A stretch of DNA of 64,000 bases, from positions 1 to 64,000 of IMG/VR virus record IMGVR_UViG_3300043444_000502; one strand, 5' to 3'. Positions 4,574 through 48,324 of this stretch are shown one piece after another. Origin of the DNA: a virus (lineage: Duplodnaviria; Heunggongvirae; Uroviricota; Caudoviricetes). The position numbers were made by a program, and so were the translations under genes. Below the pieces are notes generated by a model. It did not search any database and was not told the origin of the DNA. It was given only the letters and a program-made list of their open reading frames with translations. How positions within the stretch are numbered: the first letter of the stretch is position 1; every line of letters starts with the position of its first letter.

Positions 4574-4577
4574 CCAA

Positions 4578-5129: not shown

Positions 5130-5202
5130 GCCTGGTTGCGTAGAGAGGTGATACGTCTCCCTTACAAGGAGAGCGATGTTGGTTCGAGTCCAACACCAGG
5201 TA
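5130..5202 (+). tRNA. tRNA-Val: tRNA-Val(TAC)
   Basis: acceptor GCCTGGT/ACCAGGT, anticodon stem TCTCC/GGAGA, loop CTTACAA, T-arm GTTGGTTCGAGTCCAAC. Confidence 0.7.
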
Positions 5203-5225
5203 CCAGATTTGATATATAGTAGTAT

Positions 5226-5297
5226 GCTTCTATAACATAATGGCTAATGTGGACGTCTCTAAAACGTTTTATCTGAGTTCAATTCTCAGTAGAAGCA
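5226..5297 (+). tRNA. tRNA-Sup(CTA): suppressor-type tRNA, anticodon CTA (reads UAG amber), class I
   Basis: acceptor GCTTCTA/TAGAAGC, D-stem ACAT/ATGT, anticodon stem GACGT/ACGTT, loop CTCTAAA, T-arm CTGAGTTCAATTCTCAG, CCA encoded. Confidence 0.6.
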
Positions 5298-6342: not shown

Positions 6343-6350
6343 ATCAAATT

Positions 6351-6377
6351 TGGGGATCTCAGATCCCCATTTTTTAT
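6351..6377 (+). terminator. rho-independent terminator
   Basis: GGGGATCT/AGATCCCC hairpin + T-run after the HNH gene. Confidence 0.6.
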
Positions 6378-6390
6378 GATATATAATGAT

Positions 6391-6987
6391 ATGATTGAAA
6401 AGCCTATTATAATTGATGACGTCATCGACGTTTCATATCAAAATGTTCTTATAGAAGAATTCATACAAAAAGCTCCATGGTTTTTTGTAAACGATATTAC
6501 GTTTGCAAATGGTGCAAATCATAGAAAAACTCCAGCCTTTTCCCATTTGTTTACTGAATTTGGAAAATACCATGATGATCAATTTTTTCATATGGTAAGT
6601 CCAATTGCTTATGAAGCATGTAAACATATCAATTATAAAATCGATTTAGTTTATAAAGCTAGATCGTTTTTGCAACTTCCATTATCAGAACAATTTAAAT
6701 CGAAAGATATAGACGCACTACATGTGGATCAACCATTTCCACATCTCGTAGTGCTTTATTATTTGGTTGATTCAGATGGTGATACAATATTGGTTGATCA
6801 TAAACGTGAAGATGATGTAGATTATAATTTAGAAGCATACGATTTTAAAGAATTACTTCGAATTACACCAAAAAAAGGTCGTTGTGTTATCTTTGATGGT
6901 GATTATTATCATACCGCTGAACAACCAGTATATAATACAAGAGCTATTATAAATTTTAATTTACTTGGAAAATTTAAAGATGTTTAA
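6391..6987 (+). CDS. 2OG-Fe(II) oxygenase family protein, sub-family A paralog 1 (track start 6376)
   Basis: LHVDQP..H-x-D ... DGDYYHTAEQP; N-termini of the paralogs align from MIEKPIIIDDVI. Confidence 0.65.
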   Translation: MIEKPIIIDDVIDVSYQNVLIEEFIQKAPWFFVNDITFANGANHRKTPAFSHLFTEFGKYHDDQFFHMVSPIAYEACKHINYKIDLVYKARSFLQLPLSEQFKSKDIDALHVDQPFPHLVVLYYLVDSDGDTILVDHKREDDVDYNLEAYDFKELLRITPKKGRCVIFDGDYYHTAEQPVYNTRAIINFNLLGKFKDV

Positions 6988-7591
6988 AGAACCTATTGTC
7001 ATAGATAATGTCATTTCAAAACGATATCAAACTCATGTGCGTGATAGTTTATTAAGTGCAAATATCGAATGGTTTTATCAACCAGATATTACATATCCAA
7101 TGCATAAAATGCCTGAAGGTTTTATTCCAAAACCGGGTTTATCACATTTGTATTACGATAATGTTAGAAGCCAAAATCCGCTTAGTCCATGGTTTCATAT
7201 GATTTGGCCTATCGCATTAGAAGCATGTGATAAAATGAATATTGTATTCGATGAATTAATGCGCGCTCGTTCATTTTTACATTTCCCTACAGATCCAAAT
7301 AGTAAACTACTTAATCATCCACACATTGATTATGAAATTCCACATTTAGTTTTATTATATTATGTTAATGATAGCGATGGTCCAACGGTTTTATATAATG
7401 AAACACTCGTTGATATTAAAGAAAAGGATTTGTCACTTGATAAACTTACTGTGAAAATGGAAGTAGAACCACGTCAAGGGCGAATGGTTATTTTTGATGG
7501 ACACACATATCATAGTAGCACACAACCTACAAAATCATCTCGATGTATTATTAATTATAATTTATTAGGTGCAAAATATGCAACTAACTAA
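6980..7591 (+). CDS. 2OG-Fe(II) oxygenase family protein, sub-family A paralog 2 (track start 6965)
   Basis: PHIDYEIPH ... FDGHTYHSS; paralog of the 6391 ORF. Confidence 0.65.
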   Translation: MFKEPIVIDNVISKRYQTHVRDSLLSANIEWFYQPDITYPMHKMPEGFIPKPGLSHLYYDNVRSQNPLSPWFHMIWPIALEACDKMNIVFDELMRARSFLHFPTDPNSKLLNHPHIDYEIPHLVLLYYVNDSDGPTVLYNETLVDIKEKDLSLDKLTVKMEVEPRQGRMVIFDGHTYHSSTQPTKSSRCIINYNLLGAKYATN

Positions 7592-8213
7592 TGCGTTTGA
7601 AGTTCCGATTTTGTATCATAAACAAAAATTACAATCACATGATACAATAAAACAATGGATTTTAAACATGTATTCGAAATCTCCTGTAATGGATGGAAAC
7701 TTTTATGGGACAGGATTTACAACTCATTTCTATAATGACTTTACTAGCGAATTACATGTATTAGATGAATTTTTTCCATTGCGCAATCACATTTTGCAAA
7801 AAGCATCAGAATATGCGATGGAACGAATTGTTAAACTAAAATCGATGGGATGCGAAGTACAATCAGATCCTCGTTTAAAGATTAAAAAAATGTGGTTTAA
7901 TGTTAATCCGAAACATGGTTATCAAGGTCGACATCATCATGGTGGATTTGTATTAGCTGGAACATATTATGTAAATGTACCACAATATTCCGGAGCAATT
8001 GAATTCACAGATCCAAATCCATTTTCATATTATAAAAACCAAAGTATGGGTCATCGTTGGTTATTGAATAATTATTATAGTGTAACACCAGAAGAAGGTG
8101 ATTTATTAATTTGGCCAGGTTATTTAGATCATGAAGTCAAAACTAATAAATCGAATGACTTAAGAATGACTGTATCATTTTGTTTAGATTGGGAGGAAGA
8201 ATGCCCGCAGTAA
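7569..8213 (+). CDS. 2OG-Fe(II) oxygenase superfamily protein (TIGR02466-like), sub-family B
   Basis: HHHGGF ... WPGYLDHEV; paralog of the 2067 and 8201 ORFs. Confidence 0.6.
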   Translation: MQNMQLTNAFEVPILYHKQKLQSHDTIKQWILNMYSKSPVMDGNFYGTGFTTHFYNDFTSELHVLDEFFPLRNHILQKASEYAMERIVKLKSMGCEVQSDPRLKIKKMWFNVNPKHGYQGRHHHGGFVLAGTYYVNVPQYSGAIEFTDPNPFSYYKNQSMGHRWLLNNYYSVTPEEGDLLIWPGYLDHEVKTNKSNDLRMTVSFCLDWEEECPQ

Positions 8214-8836
8214 TTTATCCTTTTGGACCAGGTTTATATAAAGCTCGTTTATCTGATGACGTATTACATATGCTACAAGAAGTAGTAGAACGTGTACGTA
8301 AAGATGATTCTTTGAATAGAAGTTATAAAGCTGGTCAATTTGTATATGGTAAAAATCCAATGATGGATTTTACACCTGAAGAATTTAAATTATTTGATTT
8401 AGAAATCAAACGACATATGCTATCATACTTTTTAGAAATGCGGAATACTATTCGCATGGATAAAGATATGTCTAAAAAATGTTTAGATGCTGTTAATACA
8501 ATGCGACCGCACAATGATCATGAAAATGAAGCTAGCATTTGGGCGAATATCCAACATGCAGGTGATATGCATCCAATTCATAATCATCCAGGTGATATTT
8601 CATTTGTAACATATATTAAAGTTCCAGAATTAACTGAAGAAGATAAATTCAGAAGCGGAGGTATGGTTGCATGGACATATGGAGAATATATGGAATTTTC
8701 TAATGATATGTTTGCGCATCAACCTGAGGTTGGAGAAATTTTTATTTTTCCACCAAAATGTAGACACTTTGTTTGGCCATTTAGTAATAAAGATGGAGAA
8801 CGCATTTCTGTAGCAGGTAATTATGAATTTGCCTAA
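8201..8836 (+). CDS. 2OG-Fe(II) oxygenase superfamily protein (TIGR02466-like), sub-family B (track start 8180)
   Basis: HNHPGD ... FPPKCRHFVWP ... GERISVAGNYEF. Confidence 0.6.
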   Translation: MPAVIYPFGPGLYKARLSDDVLHMLQEVVERVRKDDSLNRSYKAGQFVYGKNPMMDFTPEEFKLFDLEIKRHMLSYFLEMRNTIRMDKDMSKKCLDAVNTMRPHNDHENEASIWANIQHAGDMHPIHNHPGDISFVTYIKVPELTEEDKFRSGGMVAWTYGEYMEFSNDMFAHQPEVGEIFIFPPKCRHFVWPFSNKDGERISVAGNYEFA

Positions 8837-9440
8837 TGACGTAATAGTATTAGATGATTTCTTACCTAAAGCTTTTGTTGAACGATATGCTCAACGAGTT
8901 TTAGATAAAGATTTCAATTGGTTTTATTTAGAAAATATTACTAGAAGCAATATTCCTAGAACATATAAATCAATTGATAATATTGAATGGCATGATACAG
9001 ATGGTTTATCACATTCTGTATTTCACGATAAAGAATGGTATGATCCATATTGGTCATTACAACATTCTTTGTTTATATGCGAAATGTTTGCAGAAAAAAC
9101 GGGTTGGAATTTTGATAGACTATATCGAATGAAAATTAATCAATTGATGATTACACCAAAATATGAAATTAATTTTCCTCATGTGGACGCAGAACATCCT
9201 CATGATGTTTTATTATATTACATTAATGATAGCGATGGAGAAACTATTCTTTATGATAAAATGTGGGAACCATCACACAATAATACAGAAGTAGAATTGA
9301 AAGAAATTTTACGAATTCCCCCAAAAGCAGGAAGATGCATTAAATTTAATGGTTTGCGTTATCATAGTAGTTCAACACCTGTTAAAACAAAAAGACGTTT
9401 AGCACTTAATATGAATTTAGGATACACACATGGAATATAA
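8823..9440 (+). CDS. 2OG-Fe(II) oxygenase family protein, sub-family A paralog 3
   Basis: PHVDAEHPHDVLLYYINDSDG ... NGLRYHSS. Confidence 0.65.
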   Translation: MNLPNDVIVLDDFLPKAFVERYAQRVLDKDFNWFYLENITRSNIPRTYKSIDNIEWHDTDGLSHSVFHDKEWYDPYWSLQHSLFICEMFAEKTGWNFDRLYRMKINQLMITPKYEINFPHVDAEHPHDVLLYYINDSDGETILYDKMWEPSHNNTEVELKEILRIPPKAGRCIKFNGLRYHSSSTPVKTKRRLALNMNLGYTHGI

Positions 9441-10080
9441 CGATATTATTGTAAGAGATGGATTAGTTCCGAAATATTTGCAACGAAGATTTTATGATGC
9501 TGTAACAGATCGCAATCTCCATTGGATGGATTTTGATCATGAAGTATCTTCAGGCGATTATTGGAAAGGTCGTAATTATTTGTGTGATGGTTTAAATATT
9601 AAACCATCACCGTGTTTAGTTAAATTAGCATTTACTGGTGGAGCACGAGGACCAAATGATCCAGAAATGATTCATGAACCAGAATGTTTTTACTATATGG
9701 GATTGTTCATTCTTGATCTTTTAGCTGAGAACGAAGGTTGGAATGTGAAACGCATTCTTCGCATGAAGATCAACAAACAAGTTCCTATGCATGGTTTTAC
9801 AGAAAACGATTGTAATGGAATTCATACAGATACAGAAATTCCACATAAAACACTAGTGTATTATATCAATGATAGCGATGGTGATACAATTATTATGAAT
9901 GAAAAATTTCAACCATCGCATAATGTACCAGGATGCGATATTAATACTACTATTGCAACACGTGTAACACCTATGCAAGGTAGAATTGCATGTTTTGACG
10001 GATTACGTTATCATGCTCCTAGTAATCCAATTAATTCTAAATCTCGATACCTTTTAAACATTAACTTTGTGACTGAATAA
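9430..10080 (+). CDS. 2OG-Fe(II) oxygenase family protein, sub-family A paralog 4
   Basis: IHTDTEIPH ... YYINDSDGDT ... DGLRYHAPS. Confidence 0.65.
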   Translation: MEYNDIIVRDGLVPKYLQRRFYDAVTDRNLHWMDFDHEVSSGDYWKGRNYLCDGLNIKPSPCLVKLAFTGGARGPNDPEMIHEPECFYYMGLFILDLLAENEGWNVKRILRMKINKQVPMHGFTENDCNGIHTDTEIPHKTLVYYINDSDGDTIIMNEKFQPSHNVPGCDINTTIATRVTPMQGRIACFDGLRYHAPSNPINSKSRYLLNINFVTE

Positions 10081-10625
10081 TGAAAAATTATATTTCCGTA
10101 TATGAAAACGTTTTAGACGAAACATTTTGCAAACTACTAATTGATAAGTTTGAACGAAATAAACAAATTCAAGTGCGTAGAGATGATGTTTATAAAACAT
10201 TTTTTGAAATTAATTTTGCACAATATCCAATTTTTGCAGAAGAACAAAATCATATTCTTTCACAAGTACAACCATTTGTTAGAAAATACTGTGAAGATTG
10301 GGGGATTAAATTCTTCCCAGATAAAATTGGATTTGAACAAGTTCGTATGAAAAAATACGAAATTGGAGGCAAAGATGAATTTAGAGAACACGTCGATGTA
10401 GGAGATTATGCGTCTGCACGTAGATTTCTTGTAATGTTCTTTTATCTCAATAATGTTGCAGAAGGTGGAGAAACTGCTTTTATTGGTATTGATGACAATA
10501 AAAGAATTCAACCTAAAACTGGCAGCATATTAATTTTCCCTCCAATGTGGACACATCCTCATGCTGGTTTGCCGCCAATTTCTAATCCAAAATATATTGC
10601 AGGAACATATTTGCATTATACTTAA
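10080..10625 (+). CDS. prolyl 4-hydroxylase-like 2OG-Fe(II) oxygenase, sub-family C
   Basis: EHVDVGD ... AEGGETAF ... WTHPHAG; paralog of the 15431 ORF. Confidence 0.65.
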   Translation: MKNYISVYENVLDETFCKLLIDKFERNKQIQVRRDDVYKTFFEINFAQYPIFAEEQNHILSQVQPFVRKYCEDWGIKFFPDKIGFEQVRMKKYEIGGKDEFREHVDVGDYASARRFLVMFFYLNNVAEGGETAFIGIDDNKRIQPKTGSILIFPPMWTHPHAGLPPISNPKYIAGTYLHYT

Positions 10626-12977: not shown

Positions 12978-13738
12978 AAGTTTATCTTGGAAAACCAAAT
13001 AATTGGTTTGGACCTTATCAACTTGCAGAATTACTTTGCTTTTGGGTAAAAGAAGTCGAAGATGAATGGGGAATTAAAGATAAACCAGATTGGGTACATA
13101 AATTTGGTGAATTCCTTGCTCATGGTTTTCATAAAGAAACCGAAGAACAAAAAAGAAGTTGGTCAAGAGAACGTCCAAAAACATATCTTTATAAGTTTTT
13201 AGAATGGGTACACTCTAAGAAGATTGAAAAGAAATACATTAAGATTGATTATTGGGATACATGGTCAATGGACCATACACTATCACCAATCATTCTTGCA
13301 ATGCTTAAGCAATTAAAAGAAACAAAGCATGGTTCAGGTTTCATTGATTTAGAAGATGTACCAGAATCTATGCGTTTGACAAGCACTGAAGAATATGATG
13401 CACAATCAACATTTGAATTCTATAATGATCCAGATTTGACACGACAAAACATTCAGTGTAGTGTACATGAAAGATATGAATGGGCTCTCGATGAAATGAT
13501 CTTTGCATTCGAACATCTCGTTGATGATTCATGGGAAGACAAATATCGTAGTGGCGAAATGGATCATTATTCAGAACCATGTGAATGGGATGAAAATGGC
13601 AAAGTCAAAATGTATCAGATGAAAGAAGGACCTAATCATACTTACAAATGTGATTATGATGGACTTCGAGCAGAATGGGAACGAGTGGACAATGGCCTTC
13701 GTTTATTTGGTAAGTACTTTAGAACTTTATGGGATTAA
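12974..13738 (+). CDS. hypothetical protein
   Basis: ORF track. Confidence 0.5.
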   Translation: MKVYLGKPNNWFGPYQLAELLCFWVKEVEDEWGIKDKPDWVHKFGEFLAHGFHKETEEQKRSWSRERPKTYLYKFLEWVHSKKIEKKYIKIDYWDTWSMDHTLSPIILAMLKQLKETKHGSGFIDLEDVPESMRLTSTEEYDAQSTFEFYNDPDLTRQNIQCSVHERYEWALDEMIFAFEHLVDDSWEDKYRSGEMDHYSEPCEWDENGKVKMYQMKEGPNHTYKCDYDGLRAEWERVDNGLRLFGKYFRTLWD

Positions 13739-13923
13739 TTATGCAGTATATTATTATGATCATTATTGTGTTAGCAGTTATTATTGGTAGTCCAATTGCA
13801 TCTATTTTATCTGTTAACACACTATTTAATTTAGCAATTCCAGTAACTATTGAAACTTGGTTTGCATCATTTTGGTTAACTAGCATTTTGGGTAGTGCTG
13901 TAATTAAAACACGAGCAAAATAA
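13729..13923 (+). CDS. small membrane protein (2 TM)
   Basis: hydrophobic segments. Confidence 0.4.
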   Translation: MGLIMQYIIMIIIVLAVIIGSPIASILSVNTLFNLAIPVTIETWFASFWLTSILGSAVIKTRAK

Positions 13924-14252
13924 TGGAATTTTTTATAATTGGATTTTTAATTGGGTTTTTCCTAGCATTTGCTATTATTCATTTTATTGCAAATTATGTT
14001 AGAAAAAAACGTGCAGACATTTTAGAAAAAGTTACAAATGATGCAATAAAAACCTTGAAAAAAACTATTATTCCTTCAAAAATTGAAGAACAAAATGGTA
14101 TGTTATTTTTATATAATTCAGAGGATAACACTTATTTAGCACAAGGTACATCATTAGAAGAGTTAGAATTGAACGTTAAAACTCGATTTCCAGATAAATT
14201 ATTTAACGTTCCTCAATCTGAAATAGACAAATATAAAAAGGAAACTATATGA
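13923..14252 (+). CDS. membrane protein (N-terminal TM)
   Basis: FFIIGFLIGFFLAFAIIHFIA. Confidence 0.45.
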   Translation: MEFFIIGFLIGFFLAFAIIHFIANYVRKKRADILEKVTNDAIKTLKKTIIPSKIEEQNGMLFLYNSEDNTYLAQGTSLEELELNVKTRFPDKLFNVPQSEIDKYKKETI

Positions 14253-14518
14253 ATACTCGATTATTTTATTCTGTCTTAATTAGCGTTACAATTATTATTT
14301 CTTCTTTGATTGTGTGGGGTATTTTAACTACACAATGGAAAACTGAAACTATTAAAATGTCTTTAGAAAAAGGACAAAATCCATTATACGCTATGTGTGC
14401 AATGGATAGTCAATCAGAATTGTGCAAATCTATGGTAACTGCAATGTCATTAAGTGGTCAATTTAAAGACACTTCTGCCCCGCAACCACAATCAGCTGCA
14501 TCAACCCCTAAAAAATAA
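14249..14518 (+). CDS. membrane protein (N-terminal TM)
   Basis: LFYSVLISVTIIISSLIVWGIL. Confidence 0.45.
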   Translation: MNTRLFYSVLISVTIIISSLIVWGILTTQWKTETIKMSLEKGQNPLYAMCAMDSQSELCKSMVTAMSLSGQFKDTSAPQPQSAASTPKK

Positions 14519-14545
14519 TATAAATACATTTTTTAAGGAAATAAA

Positions 14546-14809
14546 ATGCCAGGAATCGCAAGAGTTGGAGTTGATACCGCTGGTGGAACTATCACTGGTA
14601 ATTTAGCTCCTAATGTTAATATAAATGGAAGTCCAATAGTAGTAAAGGGTGCAACCGTTCAAGGTCATGGTCTTGGACCTCATGCATCTCCAACTATGGA
14701 TGGTTGTAGTTCTACAGTATTTGCAAATGGAATTCCAGTTTGTAGAGAAGGTGATGCAGCTACTTGCGGTCATCCAGCAACTGGATCAGGAAGCGTTAAT
14801 GCCGGATAA
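14546..14809 (+). CDS. PAAR-repeat spike-tip protein (T4 gp5.4-like)
   Basis: MPGIARVGVD..NINGSPIVVKG ... VFANGIPVCREGD..TCGHPATGSG. Confidence 0.75.
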   Translation: MPGIARVGVDTAGGTITGNLAPNVNINGSPIVVKGATVQGHGLGPHASPTMDGCSSTVFANGIPVCREGDAATCGHPATGSGSVNAG

Positions 14810-15428
14810 TATATTTGAATGCGATTTTTCTGAAGAGAAACTTATATCATTATTGCCAAATGCAAAAAATCATAAAAAATGGTTTAATGAATTAAAAACG
14901 CTTTTACCGCAATTTGAAATAAATACTACTAAACGTTTAGCGGCATTTATTTCTCAAACCTCATATGAATCTATAGGTTATACAGTATTTAAAGAAAATT
15001 TAAATTATAACGCAAATACTTTATTAACCATTTGGAATAATAAATTTACTCCAGAATCTGCACAAGCATATAGTAGAAAACAAGAAGCAATTGCTAATAG
15101 AGTATATGCAAATAGAATGGGGAATGGCAATGAAGAAAGCGGAGATGGTTGGAAATACCGCGGCCGTGGATTAATTCAAATTACTGGAAAAGACGCATAT
15201 AATAAATTTGCATCTTATATTGGAATGGATTTGGATGATACAATAGATTATTTAGAAACAACACATGGCGTAATACATGTTTCATGTTGGTTGTGGAAAA
15301 ATATGAATTTAAATGATTTTGTAGATGCAAATGATATGGTTAGCTTAATTCAAAGATTGACTCATGGTTTAATTGATGTCGATAAGCGAATTGAAGAATA
15401 TAATAAAATGATTAATATAATAGGATAA
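14799..15428 (+). CDS. GH19-like peptidoglycan hydrolase (lysozyme/chitinase class I fold); track start 14649 is an out-of-frame N-extension
   Basis: AFISQTSYES ... YRGRGLIQITGK; ATG overlaps the PAAR stop (ATGCCGGATAA); paralog of the 18109 ORF. Confidence 0.7.
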   Translation: MPDNIFECDFSEEKLISLLPNAKNHKKWFNELKTLLPQFEINTTKRLAAFISQTSYESIGYTVFKENLNYNANTLLTIWNNKFTPESAQAYSRKQEAIANRVYANRMGNGNEESGDGWKYRGRGLIQITGKDAYNKFASYIGMDLDDTIDYLETTHGVIHVSCWLWKNMNLNDFVDANDMVSLIQRLTHGLIDVDKRIEEYNKMINIIG

Positions 15429-15430: not shown

Positions 15431-16033
15431 ATGCAAAGCGATATTCGCGATTTTATTGGTGTATTTGATGACGCTCTTCCAGAAACTGTATGTGAAGAAT
15501 TAATAAAACATTATCATTATGTTGATCAATGGGCTTTAACTGATAAACGCACATTTGATCGCCAAGAAGCTGAACACATTGGAAAAACGTATAAAGATGA
15601 TAAAACATACTTTATGCATGAAGAACATTTAGATGAAATAAAGTTAATCAATTCTTGGCTAGCTGGTGTAATGAATAAAGCAATTAGATCTTGCATTGAA
15701 GAATACAATAAAAAATATGATGTATTATTAAATAGAGGTTATGGTTTATGGGGACATCGTCTTCAAAAAACTGGAATCGGTGCAGGTTATCACGTATGGC
15801 ATTACGAAAATAGCGGTAAAGAAGATAGTGATAGAATTTTAGCTATATTAGTATATCTTAATGACGTTGAAGAAGGCGGAGAAACAGAATTCCTTTATTA
15901 TCCTCGCCGCGTTAAACCTAAAAAAGGTAGAATCGTTATTTTCCCAGTAGGATATACTCATACACATCGTGGCAATCCTCCAATTTCTAATGAAAAATAT
16001 TTAGTTGCCACATGGACAAACAACGTAAACTGA
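15431..16033 (+). CDS. prolyl 4-hydroxylase-like 2OG-Fe(II) oxygenase
   Basis: GYHVWHYEN ... VEEGGETEF ... YTHTHRG. Confidence 0.65.
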   Translation: MQSDIRDFIGVFDDALPETVCEELIKHYHYVDQWALTDKRTFDRQEAEHIGKTYKDDKTYFMHEEHLDEIKLINSWLAGVMNKAIRSCIEEYNKKYDVLLNRGYGLWGHRLQKTGIGAGYHVWHYENSGKEDSDRILAILVYLNDVEEGGETEFLYYPRRVKPKKGRIVIFPVGYTHTHRGNPPISNEKYLVATWTNNVN

Positions 16034-16156
16034 TTGATGGTTCATTAGTAAACGAATTAGACGAAGCAAAAACTTTAACTGTTTACACTAAATGTCCAGA
16101 GAAATGGATGTTAGTCGATATGGAAACTGGAGAAGTTTACATCGGTTATTCTTCTG

Positions 16157-16390
16157 ATGGTAAAAACGATTGGAAGAAAGATGTGTAATTGTTTATTCTG
16201 GGCTTTATGGATGAAATTCAGGTGGGGTGGACAAATCAAATGGCATAAAAGTCGTACATGGTTTGGGTTTCATAACACATGGATAAATCCTAAAGGTGTA
16301 GAATGGGAATACACATTAGAGAAAGTTAAACGACATTCAATATGGTATATTCCAATATGCTATAAAGGTGTTGTAAAGAAATTGTTGTAA
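16157..16390 (+). CDS. hypothetical Trp/Lys-rich small protein (doubtful)
   Basis: ORF track only; abuts the tmRNA. Confidence 0.25.
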   Translation: MVKTIGRKMCNCLFWALWMKFRWGGQIKWHKSRTWFGFHNTWINPKGVEWEYTLEKVKRHSIWYIPICYKGVVKKLL

Positions 16391-16391
16391 T

Positions 16392-16445
16392 CCCTTCAAA
16401 GCGAAGGACTTCTGGACGCGGGTTCGACTCCCGCCTCCTCCACCA
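16392..16445 (+). ncRNA. ssrA: tmRNA (ssrA) acceptor piece of a circularly permuted two-piece tmRNA: T-arm + 3' acceptor strand + CCA
   Basis: GGACGCGGGTTCGACTCCCGCCTCCTCCACCA matches the conserved tmRNA 3' end; CTCCTCC pairs with GGGGGAG at 16534-16540 including G3.U70. Confidence 0.8.
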
Positions 16446-16533
16446 AAAGTATACTTAAATCTGTAAAAAGATCGGGATTGGTAAGCCGGAACCTCTACTT
16501 AGTAAGTTCATTTCACCTTAGTATACTTCTGAT

Positions 16534-16723
16534 GGGGGAGCCATGGTTTCGACAGGGGTAGATAGTAGAGACGGCAACACGGTAGGCGATGACCGTAAAT
16601 CAAGCAAATAACGTAAATGCAAACGATAGCGCATACGCTTTAGCAGCCTAAGAAACTAGCTAAGCTGAGGTAACTATACCTTATAATCAAAAATAGTAAA
16701 GGCTCCTTCGGGAGCCTTTTTTT
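16534..16723 (+). ncRNA. ssrA: tmRNA (ssrA) coding piece: 5' acceptor strand GGGGGAGCCATGGTTTCGACAGGGG, tag ORF 16604-16651 encoding ANNVNANDSAYALAA-stop, 3' terminator hairpin
   Basis: conserved tmRNA 5' motif (GGGG..GGnTTCGACnGGG); tag ends YALAA + TAA; located 3' of the acceptor piece, i.e. a permuted gene order. Confidence 0.8.
16701..16723 (+). terminator. rho-independent terminator (3' end of tmRNA)
   Basis: GGCTCC-TTCG-GGAGCC + T7. Confidence 0.7.
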
Positions 16724-16726
16724 ACG

Positions 16727-16734
16727 TATAAATA
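16727..16734 (+). promoter_or_regulatory. T4-type late promoter TATAAATA
   Basis: upstream of the tail-fibre gene. Confidence 0.55.
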
Positions 16735-16770
16735 GATTAGGAATACAACCATTCATGGACGATCTATTAT

Positions 16771-18006
16771 ATGCCAACAATTTTAAAATTTAGAAAATAT
16801 AGCAATGCTGGTAGTCAAACTATTACTGGCGCATTAGCTGAACTTACTGTTGATACAGACAAACAATCAATTCGCGTGCATGATGGAAATACTGCAGGCG
16901 GATCATTACTTGCAACTGAAGATCATGTAGCAAGTAGAGAAAGCGCAATTCGTAATGACATTTATGTAGAATTTGATACTAGCACAGAAGTTGACAATAA
17001 AGATGCAACAACATTAGCAAGCGCTAATCAGTATACAGATGACATATTAAATACTTCATATTCTACAACAATTGTTGTAGATCAAAAAGATGCTGCAACA
17101 CTCGCATCAGCAGAATCATATACAGATGGTAGAGAAACAGCAATTAGAAGCGATTTAGCAGGTTTAATTTCTAATTATGATACCTCTATTCAAGTTGATG
17201 GTAAAATTGCTAATGCGCTTATTCCATATAATACTGCGTTAGAAGTAGATGGTAAAATTGATGTTGCAATTAATGATCTAATTGGTGGTGCACCAGGCAC
17301 ATTAAATACATTAAACGAAATTGCAGTTGCATTAGGTAATGACGAAAATTATGCAGCATCAATTACGACTGCATTATCAACTAAAGCTCCATTAGAATCC
17401 CCAATATTCACAGGAATTCCAACAGCTCCAACTCCTGTGAATGCTACAAATGATACACAACTAGCAACAACTGCATTTGTGCAATCTGTATTAGATCAAA
17501 CACTAAGAGCGATGTTTCCAACAGGCATTATTACTTTATGGGAAGGTAGCGTAGCATCTATTCCATCAGGATATGTTTTATGCGATGGCACAAATGGTAC
17601 TCCGAATTTAACTGATAAATTTGTATCGGGCGCAGGTAACACATATGTTCCAGGAGATACAGGCGGTGCAGATTTTATTTCATTAACTAACAATGAATTG
17701 CCTACACATAATCATACAGGAACCGTTGATTCTAATGGAGCACATACTCATTTTGTAATTAATACTGATATTGTTACAGCGGGTTCTGAAATTACTTCAT
17801 CAAACTCAGTTGCTGATAATGGAAACTTAGGTACTGCATTTAGTTATAACTTAGGTGGATCTACAACAACACCAACAGCTGGTTTATCATCATCAAATGG
17901 TGCACATACACATACATTTACAACAGATGATACTGGTACTGGTCAACCATTTGATATTAGGCCACAATATTATTCATTGTGTTATATTATGCGTAAATGG
18001 TCTTAA
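16771..18006 (+). CDS. tail fibre protein with HxH metal-binding tip motifs
   Basis: late promoter TATAAATA at 16727; NGAHTHFV and NGAHTHTFT as in T4 gp12/gp37 tips; Gly/Thr/Ser-rich. Confidence 0.6.
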   Translation: MPTILKFRKYSNAGSQTITGALAELTVDTDKQSIRVHDGNTAGGSLLATEDHVASRESAIRNDIYVEFDTSTEVDNKDATTLASANQYTDDILNTSYSTTIVVDQKDAATLASAESYTDGRETAIRSDLAGLISNYDTSIQVDGKIANALIPYNTALEVDGKIDVAINDLIGGAPGTLNTLNEIAVALGNDENYAASITTALSTKAPLESPIFTGIPTAPTPVNATNDTQLATTAFVQSVLDQTLRAMFPTGIITLWEGSVASIPSGYVLCDGTNGTPNLTDKFVSGAGNTYVPGDTGGADFISLTNNELPTHNHTGTVDSNGAHTHFVINTDIVTAGSEITSSNSVADNGNLGTAFSYNLGGSTTTPTAGLSSSNGAHTHTFTTDDTGTGQPFDIRPQYYSLCYIMRKWS

Positions 18007-18027: not shown

Positions 18028-18050
18028 GGGCTCTTTCGAGCCCTTTTTTT
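18028..18050 (+). terminator. rho-independent terminator
   Basis: GGGCTC-TTTC-GAGCCC + T7. Confidence 0.7.
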
Positions 18051-18057
18051 ATAAATA
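18050..18057 (+). promoter_or_regulatory. T4-type late promoter TATAAATA
   Basis: upstream of the endolysin; follows a terminator. Confidence 0.55.
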
Positions 18058-18108: not shown

Positions 18109-18732
18109 ATGGAATTAACATTACAACAACTAAAGCAGTTACTTCCAAAGAACCCATACGTTGACCATTGGCATCATGCATTATCGCAGTTGCTACCAGA
18201 TTATGAAATAAACACACCACAGCGTATTGCAGCATTCATTGCTCAATGTGCTCATGAATCAGGTGGGTTTATGGTTCTTAAGGAAAATTTAAATTATAAA
18301 GCTGCTACACTTCGCAAGATCTTTCCGAAGTATTTCCCTACAGATGCTATGGCTGCAGAATATGCTGCAAAACCAAATAAACAAGAAGCTATTGCTAATC
18401 TTGTTTACGCCAATCGTATGGGTAATGGTGGTCCAGAAACTGGTGACGGATATCGCTATTGCGGTAGAGGTTTAATTCAATTAACTGGCAAAACTAATTA
18501 TACGTGGTTTGCAGCGTCACTTGGAATTCCAGTTGAAGAAGCTGCTGAATATCTACAAACATTTGAAGGTGCTGCACAATCTGCATGTTGGTTCTGGGAA
18601 ACCAATAATTTAAATAGATTTGCAGATACGAATGATATCAAAGGATTGACTAAAGCCATTAATGGCGGTTATATCGGACTTGAAGATCGCATTAAACATT
18701 ATGAGCATGCGTTACACGTTTTAGGAGTGTAA
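18109..18732 (+). CDS. GH19-like endolysin (track start 18103 is GTG)
   Basis: AQCAHESGGF ... CGRGLIQLTGK; late promoter at 18050. Confidence 0.75.
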   Translation: MELTLQQLKQLLPKNPYVDHWHHALSQLLPDYEINTPQRIAAFIAQCAHESGGFMVLKENLNYKAATLRKIFPKYFPTDAMAAEYAAKPNKQEAIANLVYANRMGNGGPETGDGYRYCGRGLIQLTGKTNYTWFAASLGIPVEEAAEYLQTFEGAAQSACWFWETNNLNRFADTNDIKGLTKAINGGYIGLEDRIKHYEHALHVLGV

Positions 18733-18733: not shown

Positions 18734-19012
18734 ATGAATGATCGTAAATTAGTTAAATGGTTATTGTTATTGTTGCTATTACCATTAGGATTAGCAATGT
18801 GTAGTAAAGAAGAGTATCGTTATCCTTGTCAAAACCCAGAAAATTGGGATAAAGATTTTTGTAAAATGCCTTTATGTGATGTGAATAGAACTTGTCCAGA
18901 ACACATCTTTAAAGGTCAACGCGACCCGCGATTAGGACCACCAAAAGATGATATTAAACCAAATCAAGCAGTACCTGTTACACCTGCTCAAGGAGCCAAC
19001 TGTGGAAAATAA
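18734..19012 (+). CDS. secreted Cys-rich lipoprotein (o-spanin-like)
   Basis: signal peptide LLLLLPLGLAMC, eight Cys, directly follows the endolysin. Confidence 0.5.
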   Translation: MNDRKLVKWLLLLLLLPLGLAMCSKEEYRYPCQNPENWDKDFCKMPLCDVNRTCPEHIFKGQRDPRLGPPKDDIKPNQAVPVTPAQGANCGK

Positions 19013-19040
19013 CACATTCGTTTACACAGAAGAACAATTG

Positions 19041-19457
19041 ATGGCTCGTTTAAAGTTTTTTATTGGCATTTGCCTTTCATTAACTTTATTCGGCATCGTA
19101 TTCGTTGTTCTTTATTCATTAATTTTTGTTACACAACCATTAAATGCAATCAGTCCAATTGACCAAAAGTTCTTTGAATTAATTGTACCTATTGCTACAT
19201 TCTTAACTGGTACTTTATCAGGCATTATGCTTGCTGGTACTAAGAAAGAAGATCAAGAAGCAATGCTTCAAGCTCAAAAAATGGCTAATGACAATTTCGA
19301 AGCAACAAAGAAGATGATGACGGCACCTCCGCCGCCACAAGCTCCTGTAGTTGTTCAACCGGTTTTTCAAGCACCACCAGCAAACTTCACACCACAAGTT
19401 GTGATGAGTTCTAATGGTAAACCAATGCCTGTACAACCAGATCATCCAGAGATTTAA
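19041..19457 (+). CDS. membrane protein with Pro-rich periplasmic tail (i-spanin-like?); track start 18948
   Basis: TM FFIGICLSLTLFGIVFVVLY; PPPPQAPVVVQP. Confidence 0.4.
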   Translation: MARLKFFIGICLSLTLFGIVFVVLYSLIFVTQPLNAISPIDQKFFELIVPIATFLTGTLSGIMLAGTKKEDQEAMLQAQKMANDNFEATKKMMTAPPPPQAPVVVQPVFQAPPANFTPQVVMSSNGKPMPVQPDHPEI

Positions 19458-19458
19458 T

Positions 19459-19686
19459 ATGAGCTTCTTAAAAAGTATGCTTGAAGATGGAGTTAATCAT
19501 TCGTGGAGTTCTAAGCGAGTGATTACATTTCTTGCATTCATTTTAGTTGCAATATCATTCATAGCTGATCAATTCACGCCATATAAAGCAACTAAGGAAT
19601 TGTTTGATGCAATCATCTACTTAGTAATTGCTGGTTTGGGTTTTACAGCGTCAGAAAAATTTATAAAGAAAGAAACGGAAAAATGA
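19459..19686 (+). CDS. two-TM small membrane protein (holin-like); track start 19414
   Basis: VITFLAFILVAISFIA and IIYLVIAGLGF. Confidence 0.4.
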   Translation: MSFLKSMLEDGVNHSWSSKRVITFLAFILVAISFIADQFTPYKATKELFDAIIYLVIAGLGFTASEKFIKKETEK

Positions 19687-20379: not shown

Positions 20380-22185
20380 TTAATTTCCTCTGTTGTATTG
20401 TGAATCTACTAATTCGCTGTGTAGTTTATCTGATGGACCCATAAGTCCGCGAGATACCCATTTATTATCAACATTACGTTGATTTGCATAAACAATATAT
20501 GGTTTATAACCAACCACATCTTGCATCATTACTTTACCATAAGCATCAAATCCAGGTGTATATCCCATTGCTGCAATGACTACATTTTGTACTTGCTTTT
20601 GAGATTCCATATCAGCGACTTTACCCATAGTAGAAGCTAAGTTCTTGCCATCTTCAATCGCCTTTGCTTTTACTGCTGCTTCACGTTTTGCTTGAAGTTC
20701 TTGTCTTGCTGTTGGAGCAGTTGGTTTCGTCTCTGTCGAAGTATTCGAAGCAGTTGTAGACGATGATACACTTGAGCTAGAAGCATCAGATTTTTTTTCC
20801 TCTTTAGTTTCTGTCTTAGTTTCAATCGCTGCAGCAACAGTCGTAGTTGTATTAGCTTGTTGTGAAACGCTAGATGTTACAGACACAGGTGAAACCGATG
20901 TTGTGCTTGTAGCAGATGTTGATGATGAACTCGGTGAAATAACAGCATCAACTGTAGCATCACCTGTAGTAGATACTGATGTAGTCACTGTGCCATCTGA
21001 ACTGATAGTTGGCGTTGCAGTTGTTGTGCTAACTGCTGCAACTGTAGAAGTTGATGGACTAGAATTACTTGTTGTAGTAGTCGTAGGGGTATTAACTCTT
21101 AAGAGTGCTTGTTGGGTGGCGTAAGCTGTAGCATAATTAGGACAAGTTGTTGAGTAAAGTCCATTAAGAGAGCACTGTTGTGCAAAATACGCTTCTGCAT
21201 ATCCTGGACAAGAAGTTGAGTATAGCGCATTCGCTGAGCATTGCTGATTGAAGTATGCACTTTCATATCCCTCGCATGTAGTTGAGTAAAGTGGATTAAC
21301 TGAACATTGATAACTTAAATATGCTTGAGCATAACCTGGACAGTTTACATCGTATAATGAATTTAATGTGCACTGTTGTGTATAGTATGCGCTAGCATAA
21401 CCTGGACAACTTGGATTGTATAACGCACTAATATTACATTGTGCCGTAAAATATCCTGGACACGTTGGTGATGACAATGGATTAACTGTGCACATATCTG
21501 TACCTGTAAATCCACCAGTAGTATTCCAACTAACACCACCAGTAGTAGTATTAATTGTCAAGCCTTGTCCATGATATGCTTGAAAGTATTCTCCACGTGA
21601 TAAATCACCTGACATACCAGATGTCACAGCATTCCATTGTACTAACGCTCCAGCGATTCTAGTATCAACAACGCCAACGGAATTAATCTTAATCTCAAAA
21701 CTATTACCACCGTTTGCATTACAACATTGACTCACATTATACCAACCATAAGTCATGGAATTTGTTTCTCTAAGATACCAATTACTTCCAACTCCTGGAT
21801 GTGCATATAGATCACTATGTAAACCATAGATTGTGTAATTGTATGCTGAATTTGTAGTTGTAGTTAAATCAACACCAGAACAACAACCGTGATTGAGTGA
21901 TGGTTGAAATGCTACAAACCCATTAGATGACATCCATGAATTAGTGAACGTTTGACCCCAGAATGGAAAATTGAAACCGAGTGGAACGTTTCTAACTTCA
22001 TCGTCCCCCATAGTTACGTTTGTAGCAGCTGGATTTGTTCGTATATCAGTGAGTGGAAGTGCATTAACCCCAGTGGCCGCAGTTATTGATAAACCGGGCG
22101 CACCAGGAATAGGTAAAGTCACAATTTCAGCTGAAACCGTGATTGAACATATTAATAGTAATAATGCAATGAAGAAGTTCTTCAT
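20380..22185 (-). CDS. secreted protein with six tandem ~20-aa Cys repeats (C..LY..CPGY..AY..QQC) and a Thr/Ser-rich linker
   Basis: signal peptide MKNFFIALLLLICSITVSA; repeats within nt ~21120-21480. Confidence 0.6.
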   Translation of the reverse strand: MKNFFIALLLLICSITVSAEIVTLPIPGAPGLSITAATGVNALPLTDIRTNPAATNVTMGDDEVRNVPLGFNFPFWGQTFTNSWMSSNGFVAFQPSLNHGCCSGVDLTTTTNSAYNYTIYGLHSDLYAHPGVGSNWYLRETNSMTYGWYNVSQCCNANGGNSFEIKINSVGVVDTRIAGALVQWNAVTSGMSGDLSRGEYFQAYHGQGLTINTTTGGVSWNTTGGFTGTDMCTVNPLSSPTCPGYFTAQCNISALYNPSCPGYASAYYTQQCTLNSLYDVNCPGYAQAYLSYQCSVNPLYSTTCEGYESAYFNQQCSANALYSTSCPGYAEAYFAQQCSLNGLYSTTCPNYATAYATQQALLRVNTPTTTTTSNSSPSTSTVAAVSTTTATPTISSDGTVTTSVSTTGDATVDAVISPSSSSTSATSTTSVSPVSVTSSVSQQANTTTTVAAAIETKTETKEEKKSDASSSSVSSSTTASNTSTETKPTAPTARQELQAKREAAVKAKAIEDGKNLASTMGKVADMESQKQVQNVVIAAMGYTPGFDAYGKVMMQDVVGYKPYIVYANQRNVDNKWVSRGLMGPSDKLHSELVDSQYNRGN

Positions 22186-45620: not shown

Positions 45621-46937
45621 ATGAAAAATTATATGAATTGGTTTACTGGTGTAGTAGAAGATAGACAAGATCCTATGGAAATGGGTCGTGTACGCGTTCG
45701 TATCTTTGGTTTGCATACAGATGACACAAATAAAATTAAAGTTGGTGATTTACCATGGGCTCATACATTAATGCCAACAACATCTGCTAGTATTTCAGGT
45801 GTTGGTTTTTCTCCAACTGGTTTAGTGCAAGGTTCTTGGGTTGTAGGGTTTTTTGCAGATGGTGAAAATTGCCAAGATCCTATCATATTGGGTTCCATTC
45901 ATGGACACCCAACGCAGAGTACTGATGATAGAAGAGCTTTTAAAGATCCTGATGGGTCATATCCACGATGGTTAAACGATAGCGATACTAGTTTTTGTGC
46001 ACGTTCAAAATGGAAAGAACATACATCATATCAAGTTAGATATGCAGCGCAAGTAAAGGGAATTGAAAAGGCAACTAAACCGCAATTACAAACAATTGTA
46101 TCAGAACATACTGAAGAAGAAACGCGTTCTACATGGGATGAACCAGAACCAAGAAGAGGATTTCCGGGTTTTTATCCAAATATTCATACGTATGAATCTG
46201 AAAGCGGAATTGTAAAAGAATATGATGATAGTCCTAATGGAATTAGAATTACAGAATATCATCCAGCTGGTACATTTTATGAAATTTTGCCAGACGGAGA
46301 TAAAGTAACTAAAGTATCTGGTGATAATTGGGAAATTATTGTTGCATCAGATAATATTCTAGTTCGCGGAAATCAAACTATTACTATTGAAGGTGATGCA
46401 CGTCATTTAGTAAAAGGCGATTATGTTATGGAAGTTATGGGAGATTATAACTTAAAAGTACATGGCAATCGCTTTAGTAAAGTTACAAAAAATGATGCCA
46501 TGGAAGTAGTTGGCAATTTTAACTTAAATGTGAAACAAGATTTTTTAACACGCGTCGGCGGCAATCAACAATTATTGATTGATAAAAATAAAACTGAAGT
46601 TATTGGTGGAAAATCACAATTAACTGTAACTGGTTCTGTTGATCAAATTTATTTAGACACATTAAGTACATTTTCAAATGGTGCACAATCTGTTTCTACA
46701 AATTCAACTCAACAATTCTTATCGAAAGACGGTTTAGAATTTGGTTCTCAAGCCGATTGGAATTTAAAATGTAATGCAAATCTAACTATTACTACTGTTG
46801 GTAATTTTACAATTGAAACTGATGGAAATTATACAGCGCATGCAAAACAAGGTGCAGCATTAACATCTGATACAACTACTAATATTACATCAACTGGTAA
46901 TTTTAAAATTACTGCTAATAAGATTGATCTTAACTAA
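45621..46937 (+). CDS. gp5: baseplate central spike, gp5-like (OB domain + beta-helix, no lysozyme domain)
   Basis: GRVRVRIFGLHTDD N-terminal OB motif; C-terminal VxGxxxxxV beta-helix repeats. Confidence 0.8.
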   Translation: MKNYMNWFTGVVEDRQDPMEMGRVRVRIFGLHTDDTNKIKVGDLPWAHTLMPTTSASISGVGFSPTGLVQGSWVVGFFADGENCQDPIILGSIHGHPTQSTDDRRAFKDPDGSYPRWLNDSDTSFCARSKWKEHTSYQVRYAAQVKGIEKATKPQLQTIVSEHTEEETRSTWDEPEPRRGFPGFYPNIHTYESESGIVKEYDDSPNGIRITEYHPAGTFYEILPDGDKVTKVSGDNWEIIVASDNILVRGNQTITIEGDARHLVKGDYVMEVMGDYNLKVHGNRFSKVTKNDAMEVVGNFNLNVKQDFLTRVGGNQQLLIDKNKTEVIGGKSQLTVTGSVDQIYLDTLSTFSNGAQSVSTNSTQQFLSKDGLEFGSQADWNLKCNANLTITTVGNFTIETDGNYTAHAKQGAALTSDTTTNITSTGNFKITANKIDLN

Positions 46938-46947: not shown

Positions 46948-48324
46948 ATGAGTTTTTCACCATGTGGAATAAACGCTGCCTTAGATGAAGCTAAAGCAGG
47001 CATTGATAATTTAAAAGATAAAATTAAAGGCGGATTAGACGAGATCTCTGATGTTGGAGCGATGACGCAAAAAATCAAAGATAAATTAGCTGAAGTTAAT
47101 GTTCCACAAATTCCAGAAACAGATTTGCGTGCGGAATTAAGTAAATTGCCATATTTAACTCCTGAAGAATATACTAAAAAGGTTGCAGAATTAAAAAAGC
47201 AATTTGGCGAAGCTGTTCCAGATTTAGATTCTATTATTGGAAAAATTCCAAAACCTGTTGGTATGAATGCGGTTGGCGGAAAAGATATTTTTGCAGATTT
47301 ACAAAAAGCTTTGGGTGGTATTGGTAATATTTTCCAAACTGTACAAGAAAAATTATCTCAAACTTCCCTTGAATCAGTGGTTGATAATTTGTGTAATGAA
47401 AAGAAAGTAGATCCAGCAACTGGCAAAGAAGTACCTGCAGTTCCAAATATTATCGTCACACCAAAAATATTGACTGATAAATTTGGTAAACCAATTTATG
47501 AAGCTGATGGTACTCCAAAGGTAGAAAAAGACAAAAGTGGTAATGTTGTATATGCAAAACCTATTCCAAAACCTCCTGCTCCTGCAACGCCTAAAACAAA
47601 TCCAGTTGAAGAAAAAAAACCGGCTGAAGCACCAGCAAAGGGTTTTACATTTGAATTCACTGAAGCAAAATTAATTAAAGCTGCAGGTAAAAACGCGGGT
47701 CCATGGTTTGATACATTAAAAACATACTTGCCAAAATATAATATTACTACTCCAGAAAGAGTAGCTGCGTTTTTAGGTACATGTAAAACTGAGACCGGTT
47801 GGGTAAACTTGAAAGAAAAAACCGGTTATAATGCAGATTATTTGTATAATCATTTAAATGGTAAAAAGAAATTGCGTTTTCCAACCTTTGCTGATGCTGA
47901 AAAGGTAGCTGGTAAACCAAAGGAGATTGCAAATATCATTTATACAGTTGATAGACCAGCGTCACAATTATGTGGTGAGTTAGAACCAGATCATGGTTGG
48001 AAATATAGAGGTCGTGGTTTAATTCAACTAACATTTAAATCAGGTTATTTACAGTGCTCTAAAGCTTTATATGGTGATGATAGATTATGTCAAAATACTG
48101 AACAAGTAGCTGACGATAAGAATATTGCTGTTGAAACATCATGTTGGTTTTGGAAAACTAATAATTTGAATGATTGGTGTGATAAAAAAGCTTGGGGTGA
48201 TGTTCGTGCTATTGTAAACTCAGGTAGACCACTGAAAAAAGATAATCCTGACGGGAAGGGTATTCATGGATTTAAAGAATCTATGAAAAACATAGAAGAA
48301 GCATATAACGTACTGAAAGCATAA
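46948..48324 (+). CDS. tail-associated lysin: coiled-coil N-terminus + C-terminal GH19-like lysozyme domain
   Basis: AAFLGTCKTETGW ... YRGRGLIQLTFKSGY; paralog of the 14799 and 18109 ORFs. Confidence 0.7.
   Translation: MSFSPCGINAALDEAKAGIDNLKDKIKGGLDEISDVGAMTQKIKDKLAEVNVPQIPETDLRAELSKLPYLTPEEYTKKVAELKKQFGEAVPDLDSIIGKIPKPVGMNAVGGKDIFADLQKALGGIGNIFQTVQEKLSQTSLESVVDNLCNEKKVDPATGKEVPAVPNIIVTPKILTDKFGKPIYEADGTPKVEKDKSGNVVYAKPIPKPPAPATPKTNPVEEKKPAEAPAKGFTFEFTEAKLIKAAGKNAGPWFDTLKTYLPKYNITTPERVAAFLGTCKTETGWVNLKEKTGYNADYLYNHLNGKKKLRFPTFADAEKVAGKPKEIANIIYTVDRPASQLCGELEPDHGWKYRGRGLIQLTFKSGYLQCSKALYGDDRLCQNTEQVADDKNIAVETSCWFWKTNNLNDWCDKKAWGDVRAIVNSGRPLKKDNPDGKGIHGFKESMKNIEEAYNVLKA

Follow-up and report, generated by a model that had tools for sequence, protein, structure and literature searches.

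Does a peptidoglycan hydrolase encoded immediately behind the spike-tip gene of a tailed phage travel on that tip, or does it only share a transcript with it? This question is raised by a window of 64,000 nucleotides (nt), the whole stretch of DNA that was analysed (positions 1 to 64,000 of IMG/VR record IMGVR_UViG_3300043444_000502). In the window, a gene for a PAAR-repeat spike-tip protein of 87 amino acids (aa; 14546..14809, plus strand) is overlapped at its end by a gene for a divergent 209-aa muramidase of glycoside hydrolase family 19 (GH19; 14799..15428, plus strand). Three GH19 genes are present in the window, and the one behind PAAR is referred to here as copy 1. The source of the window is an uncultured T4-like myophage, a relative of Methylophilales phage Melnitz and the pelagimyophages. 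With a probability of roughly 0.6, copy 1 is a partly redundant accessory endolysin that shares a late operon with PAAR and is not cargo of the tip.

The PAAR protein has the features of a phage spike tip. Its open reading frame (ORF) runs from an ATG at 14546 to a TAA at 14807-14809, is preceded by a Shine-Dalgarno sequence, AAGGA, read from the sequence (14535..14539, plus strand), and encodes three PAAR-like repeats (GIARVGVD, PIVVKGA and PVCREGD) and the C-terminus CGHPATGSGSVNAG. Residues 11-75 score 35.7 bits against the Pfam PAAR_motif profile (PF05488; cut-off 27), and the protein matches PHROG 281 (E=1.2e-14), the spike tip gp163.1 of phage phiKZ (PDB 6p1z; E=1.3e-13, residues 1-86 covered) and a PAAR protein from a secretion system of type VI (T6SS; PDB 4jiw; E=1.9e-8). 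H41, H46, C66, C74 and H75 are identical between the window protein and 6p1z; going by known PAAR structures, these residues presumably bind zinc. The protein stops at residue 87, where the PAAR fold ends, and has no C-terminal extension. A search for a second PAAR within the window found none.

The central spike protein gp5 (45621..46937, plus strand) consists of an OB domain (Gp5_OB, 95.2 bits) and a C-terminal beta-helix (Gp5_trimer_C, 38.1 bits). A Pfam scan of gp5 returned nothing beyond these two domains and no lysozyme domain, and the HxH apex motif is absent from its C-terminal region. Because a spike without the HxH apex is expected to need a separate tip protein (PMC12407873), such a protein is expected here. 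Relatives were compared over 65 IMG/VR loci with a homologous PAAR and over 80 loci collected from the GH19 side, each designated by L and a number. The spike-tip role is supported because about 14 more distant T4-like contigs among the 65 PAAR loci carry the PAAR homologue between gp5 and gp25, which is the position of T4 gene 5.4. The PAAR protein is predicted to be the cone that caps the blunt end of the gp5 beta-helix, a functional analogue of T4 gp5.4.

Copy 1 is a GH19 protein in sequence and in predicted fold. It contains SQTSYES and YRGRGLIQITGK, scores 27.5 bits against Pfam Glyco_hydro_19 (PF00182; cut-off 25.5) and matches the endolysin family PHROG 181 with E=1e-57. Solved GH19 endolysins in the PDB match with E-values from 1e-31 to 1e-23, including 8p8e (1.4e-31) and 9eoi (3.4e-30). 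The AlphaFold model of copy 1, with a predicted local distance difference test score (pLDDT) of 95.3, superposes on 9eoi with a template-modelling score (TM) of 0.89 and a root-mean-square deviation of 2.2; the T6SS effector TseP (PDB 8xcl) also matches the model (E=3.5e-8, TM 0.80). Copy 1 keeps E57 (14967-14969), E66 (14994-14996) and T129, which occupy columns that are 100% conserved among 123 homologues. As in other GH19 enzymes, we take the two glutamates to be catalytic and T129 to be the water-positioning Ser/Thr. Lys68 was set aside as a guide to the catalytic residues of GH19, since it belongs to GH24. The start codon at 14799 agrees with the start position of the aligned homologues. 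The first-pass annotation of this DNA had described an 87-aa protein with three PAAR repeats ending at TAA 14807-14809 and GH19 signatures in the ORF at 14799. The former is borne out by the coordinates and the Pfam and PDB matches, the PAAR motif scoring above its threshold in the profile search, and the latter by the profile, PDB and fold matches and by the presence of both catalytic glutamates in the alignment.

The ATG at 14799 lies 8 nt ahead of the PAAR stop codon, giving an overlap of 11 nt between the two genes, and the Shine-Dalgarno sequence of copy 1, AGGAAG (14788..14793, plus strand), lies within the 3' end of PAAR, 5 nt before the ATG. The overlap is not distinctive because overlapping or tight spacing is usual in the window. 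By crude gene calls, 31 of the 71 same-strand neighbour pairs overlap, 42 of the 71 overlap or lie no more than 10 nt apart, and four pairs overlap by exactly 11 nt. The overlap was therefore rejected as a sign of functional coupling. The claim of translational coupling thus stands as far as the physical overlap of 11 nt is concerned, but not as a distinctive feature of this gene pair.

A T4-type late promoter box, TATAAATA (14519..14526, plus strand), is located 19 nt upstream of the PAAR start codon. The box occurs 9 times in the window, compared with 10.2 occurrences expected by chance. Of the 9, seven are found 19-51 nt ahead of a start codon on the same strand, in front of PAAR (box at 14519), a fibre gene (16727), a second GH19 gene (18050), the baseplate operon (42669), the gene at 51764 (51723) and the two genes of a divergent pair (two boxes around 22760). 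A box is also found about 30 nt upstream of PAAR, between varying flanks, in L004, L011, L020, L046, L083, L222, L223 and L225. Directly upstream of the position-1 GH19 gene of the relatives, namely the GH19 gene behind PAAR, there is no box but just a Shine-Dalgarno sequence between an intervening gene and GH19; because of this, the position-1 gene is likely to be served by the PAAR promoter. The adjacency of PAAR and copy 1 probably goes back to an inherited operon, with a structural gene's late promoter serving a lysis enzyme as well.

The same region of the relatives contains a strong hairpin that begins in the final bases of the TATAAATA box, reaches as far as the AU of PAAR's start codon and leaves the Shine-Dalgarno sequence buried. 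Folding energies lie between -13.6 and -14.8 kcal/mol, with z of about -4 to -5, for L011 (L011:5970-6009), L020 (L020:5066-5105), L046 (L046:5969-6009) and L083 (L083:4223-4264), and the hairpin is weaker in L004 (L004:5966-6009; -8.2 kcal/mol, z -1.6). The stem shows compensatory changes (C-G, G-C, U-A). In the window the hairpin is essentially lost (-1.4 kcal/mol). The T4 lysozyme gene e reportedly has a similar layout, in which only late transcripts starting inside the 5' arm can be translated.

The gene order around PAAR differs among relatives in a way that bears directly on the cargo question. Among the 65 PAAR loci, GH19 is found near PAAR only in the window's own clade, and of the 80 related loci gathered from the GH19 side only 4 carry a PAAR at a distance of up to 5 kb. 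The closest relative is L223, in which PAAR is 82% identical, the 2-oxoglutarate (2OG) oxygenase 92% and the GH19 gene at the copy 2 position 94%. In L223 and L224 the 2OG oxygenase gene directly follows PAAR, at a distance of 23 nt in L223, and no GH19 gene is present there; further on, L223 carries a fibre gene, the GH19 gene that is 94% identical to copy 2, and lipoprotein-like and transmembrane genes. In L004, L222, L225 and L226 the order is PAAR, an unrelated protein of 204 aa, GH19, 2OG oxygenase and fibre, with no second GH19. In L046, L011, L020 and L083 a PAAR protein of 108 aa is followed by a gap of 430-460 bp and then by GH19; the gap of L046, read directly, encodes a 139-aa N-terminal fragment of a tail fibre. 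An intervening gene separates PAAR and GH19 in seven relatives. The window has both free GH19 copies, with copy 1 abutting PAAR. Direct coupling of PAAR to copy 1 is confined to one lineage, which is also the lineage in which copy 1 has diverged.

The second free GH19 gene, copy 2 (ATG 18109-18732, plus strand, 207 aa), has its own late promoter box at 18050-18057 and keeps the family consensus. It is 94% identical to the sole free GH19 found on the 10-kb locus of L223, and it groups with GH19 genes of other phages, among them genes that adjoin LysC-like and holin-like genes, and not with the position-1 genes of its own clade. Such a grouping suggests that copy 2 has been acquired rather than duplicated locally. 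Copy 2 is followed on the plus strand by genes for a Cys-rich, lipoprotein-like protein of 92 aa (18734-19012), a protein of 169 aa with two transmembrane segments (18948-19457), which matches just a PHROG of unknown function, and a protein of 90 aa with two transmembrane segments (19414-19686), their membrane topology being read from the sequence. A Pfam scan of these three proteins returned no match, and PHROG gave no known function. Homologues of the lipoprotein-like and 169-aa proteins are encoded directly upstream of GH19 in L084, L087, L088, L089 and L093; the next-closest GH19 genes are linked to such homologues and not to PAAR, and other members of the family to which copies 1 and 2 belong adjoin LysC-like and holin-like genes. 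The proteins of 18734-19686 are putative lysis accessory proteins, candidates for spanin- or holin-type functions. Such genes adjoin copy 2 and not copy 1, on the downstream side of which no adjacent holin or spanin candidate was found. The GH19 family of copies 1 and 2 probably serves as endolysins, and copy 2 is probably the main one in this phage.

Copy 1 has moved away from its family. Of 71 near-invariant columns (at least 90% conserved), 16 no longer show the consensus residue in copy 1, compared with 2 in copy 2, and the departures include H56Y, N133A, S161V, N188T, G189H, G193D and D196K. By analogy with plant GH19 chitinases, we take N133 and N188 to be substrate-groove residues. The mean identity to outgroup members of the family is 46.8% for copy 1 and 62% for its positional orthologues, and in a search of 5.8 billion proteins the closest homologue apart from copy 1 itself reaches only 50% identity. 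Amino acids with AT-rich codons make up 0.35 of copy 1 compared with 0.25-0.28 of the other free GH19 copies examined. The GC content of copy 1 is the fourth lowest of 58 genes (z = -1.3), and that of copy 2 is somewhat high (z = +0.9); GC content was not used as a sign of foreign origin, both z values being weak signals.

Copy 1 is nevertheless still under selection and is not a dead gene. When the gene of a relative was evolved neutrally in simulation to 50% identity, its ORF remained open in only 1 of 3000 runs; this result and the high-confidence fold of copy 1 are the grounds for this conclusion. Samples differ at 4 sites in 2.7 kb, too few for an analysis of selection, and copy 1 accounts for one synonymous and one non-synonymous difference. 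The latter, G110S (L079:1084-1713; equivalent to window 15126-15128), is the sole amino-acid polymorphism in the 2.7 kb and affects a glycine that is invariant across the GH19 family.

These data are most simply combined as follows. The late promoter TATAAATA at 14519 would drive a unit that is headed by PAAR and comprises copy 1, the 2OG-Fe(II) oxygenase, a 58-aa ORF and a transfer-messenger RNA (tmRNA), up to a hairpin at 16698. Copy 1 would descend by position from the single endolysin gene behind PAAR in the relatives. Because the lineage also holds a second, consensus-like copy, with a separate late promoter and membrane proteins of lysis type as partners, copy 1 would have become redundant. 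It would then have diverged fast, including its substrate-groove residues, with its fold and catalytic centre left intact, and would have been deleted in the sister phage L223. The 11-nt overlap would have arisen on loss of the gene that separates the pair in other relatives and would represent ordinary gene packing. Most likely, copy 1 would serve as an accessory muramidase that is soluble, is produced late and acts during lysis.

The slot for a tail-associated lysozyme appears to be filled by the third GH19 gene. Copy 3 (46948..48324, plus strand, 458 aa), identified by profile matches, combines a GH19 domain with an N-terminal orphan domain of about 230 aa, and lies inside the baseplate operon between gp5 and gp25 (48336-48782). 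The same order of gp5, GH19 copy 3 and gp25 is found in the relative L160, which has no PAAR there. The N-terminal domain has zero matches in cultured phages and matches 3 fragments among 5.8 billion proteins. Because copy 3 occupies the slot beside a gp5 that lacks a lysozyme domain, in an order that recurs in L160, it is the best candidate for the tail lysozyme; it is probably tail-associated and a better candidate for a spike lysin than copy 1.

Lysins linked to the spike or its tip occur elsewhere among these phages. In 13 of the 65 PAAR loci (L013:6001-6963, L005:5061-6026, L007:3599-4582, L006, L008, L012, L014-L018, L021 and L067) the PAAR is fused to a CHAP domain, a peptidoglycan hydrolase, through a linker of about 110 aa. 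The fused PAAR is 66-72% identical to that of the window, and both Pfam PAAR and CHAP score above threshold in L013 and L005. The sister loci L022-L030 carry an unfused PAAR of 87 aa in the same nrdA-nrdB-glutaredoxin context, and no PAAR-CHAP fusion was found among 50,697 cultured phage records. Such a fusion may give a phage spike tip a lysin that is attached covalently. The spike is split in a T4-like contig that is more distant (L034:2690-5999): a Gp5 OB domain is fused to a lysin domain resembling the C-terminal domain of T6SS VgrG3 (181 bits), and after this OB-VgrG3-like protein come a protein of 741 aa and PAAR, in this order. Judged from these architectures, tip- or spike-linked lysins appear to be real and modular in these phages.

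Against this background, copy 1 could be a virion protein that binds non-covalently to the PAAR tip or the nearby spike, is made in step with PAAR by translational coupling, and is delivered to the periplasm to open the peptidoglycan in the manner of a T6SS cargo effector. We regard this as unlikely. It would account for the shared late promoter and the overlap, for a gp5 without a lysozyme domain of its own, and for a gene that is divergent yet under selection; the PAAR-CHAP fusions and the VgrG3-like domain on the L034 gp5, the structural match of TseP to the model, and the 21-aa tail that PAAR carries in the relatives L011, L020 and L046 speak for it as well. Consistently, PAAR2 of Vibrio cholerae carries the hydrolase TseH (PMC8406194), and for 10% of the toxins linked to PAAR in bacteria the gene directly follows that of PAAR (PMC8651086). 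However, the PAAR of L223, 82% identical, has no GH19 beside it, and unrelated genes split the pair in seven relatives. The PAAR of the window is a bare cone without a tail that could recruit a partner, no Pfam match to a T6SS adaptor family was found in the neighbours examined, and copy 1 has no docking domain beyond what ordinary endolysins possess. The overlap follows the default gene spacing of this genome, the niche of a tail lysozyme is probably already filled by copy 3 beside gp5, and a globule of 23 kDa would presumably blunt the point of the needle. The first-pass annotation had suggested that the spike tip may carry the lysozyme in the manner of T6SS cargo, and had placed gp5 about 30 kb away. 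The distance is correct, as gp5 begins about 31 kb downstream of PAAR, but the cargo proposal is not supported, given the state of L223, the interruption of the pair in seven relatives, the 4 of 80 GH19 loci with PAAR nearby, copy 3 and the tail-less PAAR.

A different reading is that copy 1 is a functionless remnant nearing deletion, redundant with copy 2, and that its place beside PAAR has no meaning. The deletion of the gene in the sister phage L223, the alteration of 16 of the 71 near-invariant positions including the strictly conserved N133 and N188, the low GC content with amino acids skewed to AT-rich codons, and the G110S polymorphism at an invariant glycine would all be expected of such a remnant. 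However, an open frame of unchanged length (209 aa) with E57, E66 and T129 in place would be very unlikely under neutrality, as the simulations show, and the protein retains a high-confidence predicted fold and its gene a good Shine-Dalgarno sequence. Complete loss of function is thus quite improbable.

It is likewise quite doubtful, although conceivable, that after copy 2 took over lysis, copy 1 was re-purposed as a virion lysin that docks on the PAAR-capped tip, with the loss of the intervening gene, the coupling and the remodelled groove as parts of the new role. If true, re-purposed copy 1 would be the non-covalent counterpart of the marine PAAR-CHAP tips, and PAAR2-TseH would have an analogue in a phage. 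A covalent PAAR-GH19 fusion resembling the natural PAAR-hydrolase fusions such as PAAR-CHAP, made by a programmed +1 frameshift towards the end of PAAR, is very improbable and was rejected: in the GH19 frame no stop codon interrupts the 51 codons before ATG 14799, which span most of PAAR, a mildly unusual length reached by only 2.5% of stop-free +1-frame runs in the window, but this is explained by the Gly/Ala-rich, GC-richer sequence of PAAR (43.6% GC), no slippery or release factor 2-like site was seen by eye in the overlap, and a canonical Shine-Dalgarno sequence and ATG are found exactly where the homologues start.

Several points weigh against the accessory-endolysin interpretation. The retention of frame and catalytic residues by copy 1 despite its divergence also fits a new role, possibly in the virion. 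The coincidence of PAAR coupling and copy 1 divergence in a single lineage would be expected under the cargo hypothesis too. Instead of being an orthologue that diverged in place, copy 1 could be foreign, with its origin in a lineage not yet sampled. Finally, the lysis role assigned to the neighbours of copy 2 is read from topology and conserved linkage only.

The remainder of the locus agrees with a T4-like genome of a lineage without close cultured members. Its baseplate proteins share about 40% identity with their counterparts in Melnitz and the pelagimyophages, and a search for a close cultured relative at the DNA level found none, the matches being short and 66-77% identical. The copy 1 protein is recorded in its exact form on a 246,141-bp contig of the Joint Genome Institute (JGI), and contigs of two further sequencing runs encode it with at most one amino-acid change. 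Upstream of PAAR, three small membrane proteins of 64, 109 and 89 aa (13729..14518, plus strand), taken from the ORF list and comparison with relatives, form a trio that precedes PAAR in most syntenic relatives examined; PHROG and Pfam scans of these proteins returned no known function. Downstream, the 2OG-Fe(II) oxygenase gene (15431..16033, plus strand; Pfam PF13640, 50.1 bits) begins 3 nt past the stop codon of copy 1, and its product is 88-92% identical in L004 and L223. An ORF of 58 aa (16012..16188, plus strand) overlaps the end of the oxygenase gene and is kept in relatives. A permuted, two-piece tmRNA gene of betaproteobacterial type follows (16333..16742, plus strand; Rfam beta_tmRNA 158.7 bits, tmRNA_permuted 154.6 bits), with the tag peptide ANDSAYALAA as predicted by ARAGORN. 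It would form the end of the PAAR operon and stands right ahead of the late promoter of the fibre gene, and tmRNAs are already known from Melnitz-like phages (PMC9004378). A terminator-like hairpin (16698-16719) within the tmRNA region would close the unit, and the tail-collar fibre gene (16771-18006, plus strand) is preceded by the late promoter box at 16727-16734.

Further features of the window were recorded on the way. An array of 25 tRNA genes, matched at Rfam gathering thresholds, occupies 62-5297. A run of seven or eight paralogous genes of about 200 aa is found at 5785-10625 and 15431-16033; 2OG-Fe(II) oxygenase-like products are encoded by at least 10080-10625 and 15431-16033, and relatives differ in how many copies they have. 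A protein of 601 aa encoded on the minus strand (20380-22185) has an N-terminus resembling a signal peptide, Cys-containing repeats (...NPSCPGYA.AY..QQC...) and a Ser/Thr-rich region, and a Pfam scan of it gave no match. Its operon is headed by the late-promoter box at 22760.

For annotation, the favoured interpretation means that in this marine T4-like clade the spike-tip gene, which lies far from the baseplate genes, heads a late operon together with an endolysin-type GH19 gene. For lysis-gene evolution, the relatives and the window would form a series of three states, with one endolysin behind PAAR, then two of which the older is diverging, then deletion of the older one, pointing to replacement of a lysis gene within a phage lineage. 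The hydrolase of the spike appears to be a swappable module: here it would be a GH19 protein of its own, whereas L034 has a VgrG3-like domain on gp5, and in L005, L007 and L013 PAAR bears a CHAP domain. If tip-borne lysins are confirmed, phages would use the same strategy of tip diversification as type VI secretion systems.

Like gp163.1 of phiKZ (PDB 6P1Z/6P20), the PAAR protein is a single-domain, three-repeat cone of about 87 aa, with a full-length alignment and identical His and Cys residues. As with the gp163.1 and T4 gp5.4 tips, the matching gp5 has a beta-helix at its end and lacks an HxH apex, and in many related T4-like contigs the homologue stands directly after gp5. T4 gene 5.4 is expressed late (PMC12407873), and the promoter box predicts the same timing for PAAR here. 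In contrast to these tips, PAAR of the window lies 31 kb from gp5 in a variable region, in an operon with a lysin, an oxygenase and a tmRNA, and the slot after gp5 holds the 458-aa GH19 protein. Copy 1 resembles the GH19 endolysins 9EOI, KTN6 gp46 (8P8E) and SPN1S (4OK7) in fold (TM 0.84-0.89) and length, in the spacing of its two catalytic glutamates nine residues apart and the conserved threonine, and in having neither a signal sequence nor a cell-wall-binding domain. It differs from them in its changes at 16 of 71 near-invariant positions, in being one of three GH19 genes and in its absence from a sister phage. The pair also resembles PAAR2-TseH of V. cholerae in that a PAAR gene is immediately followed by a peptidoglycan hydrolase gene. 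However, PAAR2 is a protein of 176 aa whose C-terminal tail is needed to recruit TseH (PMC8406194), whereas the PAAR described here is tail-less at 87 aa, no adaptor or immunity gene was seen beside it, and its pairing with GH19 is not conserved in relatives.

In T4, the gp5 tail lysozyme and the endolysin gpe are a pair of paralogues that share one lysozyme fold (GH24). Likewise, one fold serves here for a probably spike-linked enzyme (copy 3) and for free ones (copies 1 and 2). However, the fold is GH19 and not GH24, there are two free copies instead of one, and copy 3 is a separate polypeptide with an orphan N-terminal domain and not a domain inserted into gp5. Finally, phage RB43 encodes in its gp5.1-5.4 slot a large non-PAAR protein, orf205w, that has been proposed to be the spike tip (PMC12407873). 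In both phages a large gene thus takes the place right behind gp5 where a small tip gene would be. Neither a gp5.4 nor a PAAR gene exists in RB43, whereas the phage described here keeps its PAAR elsewhere in the genome and has in that slot a protein with a GH19 domain.

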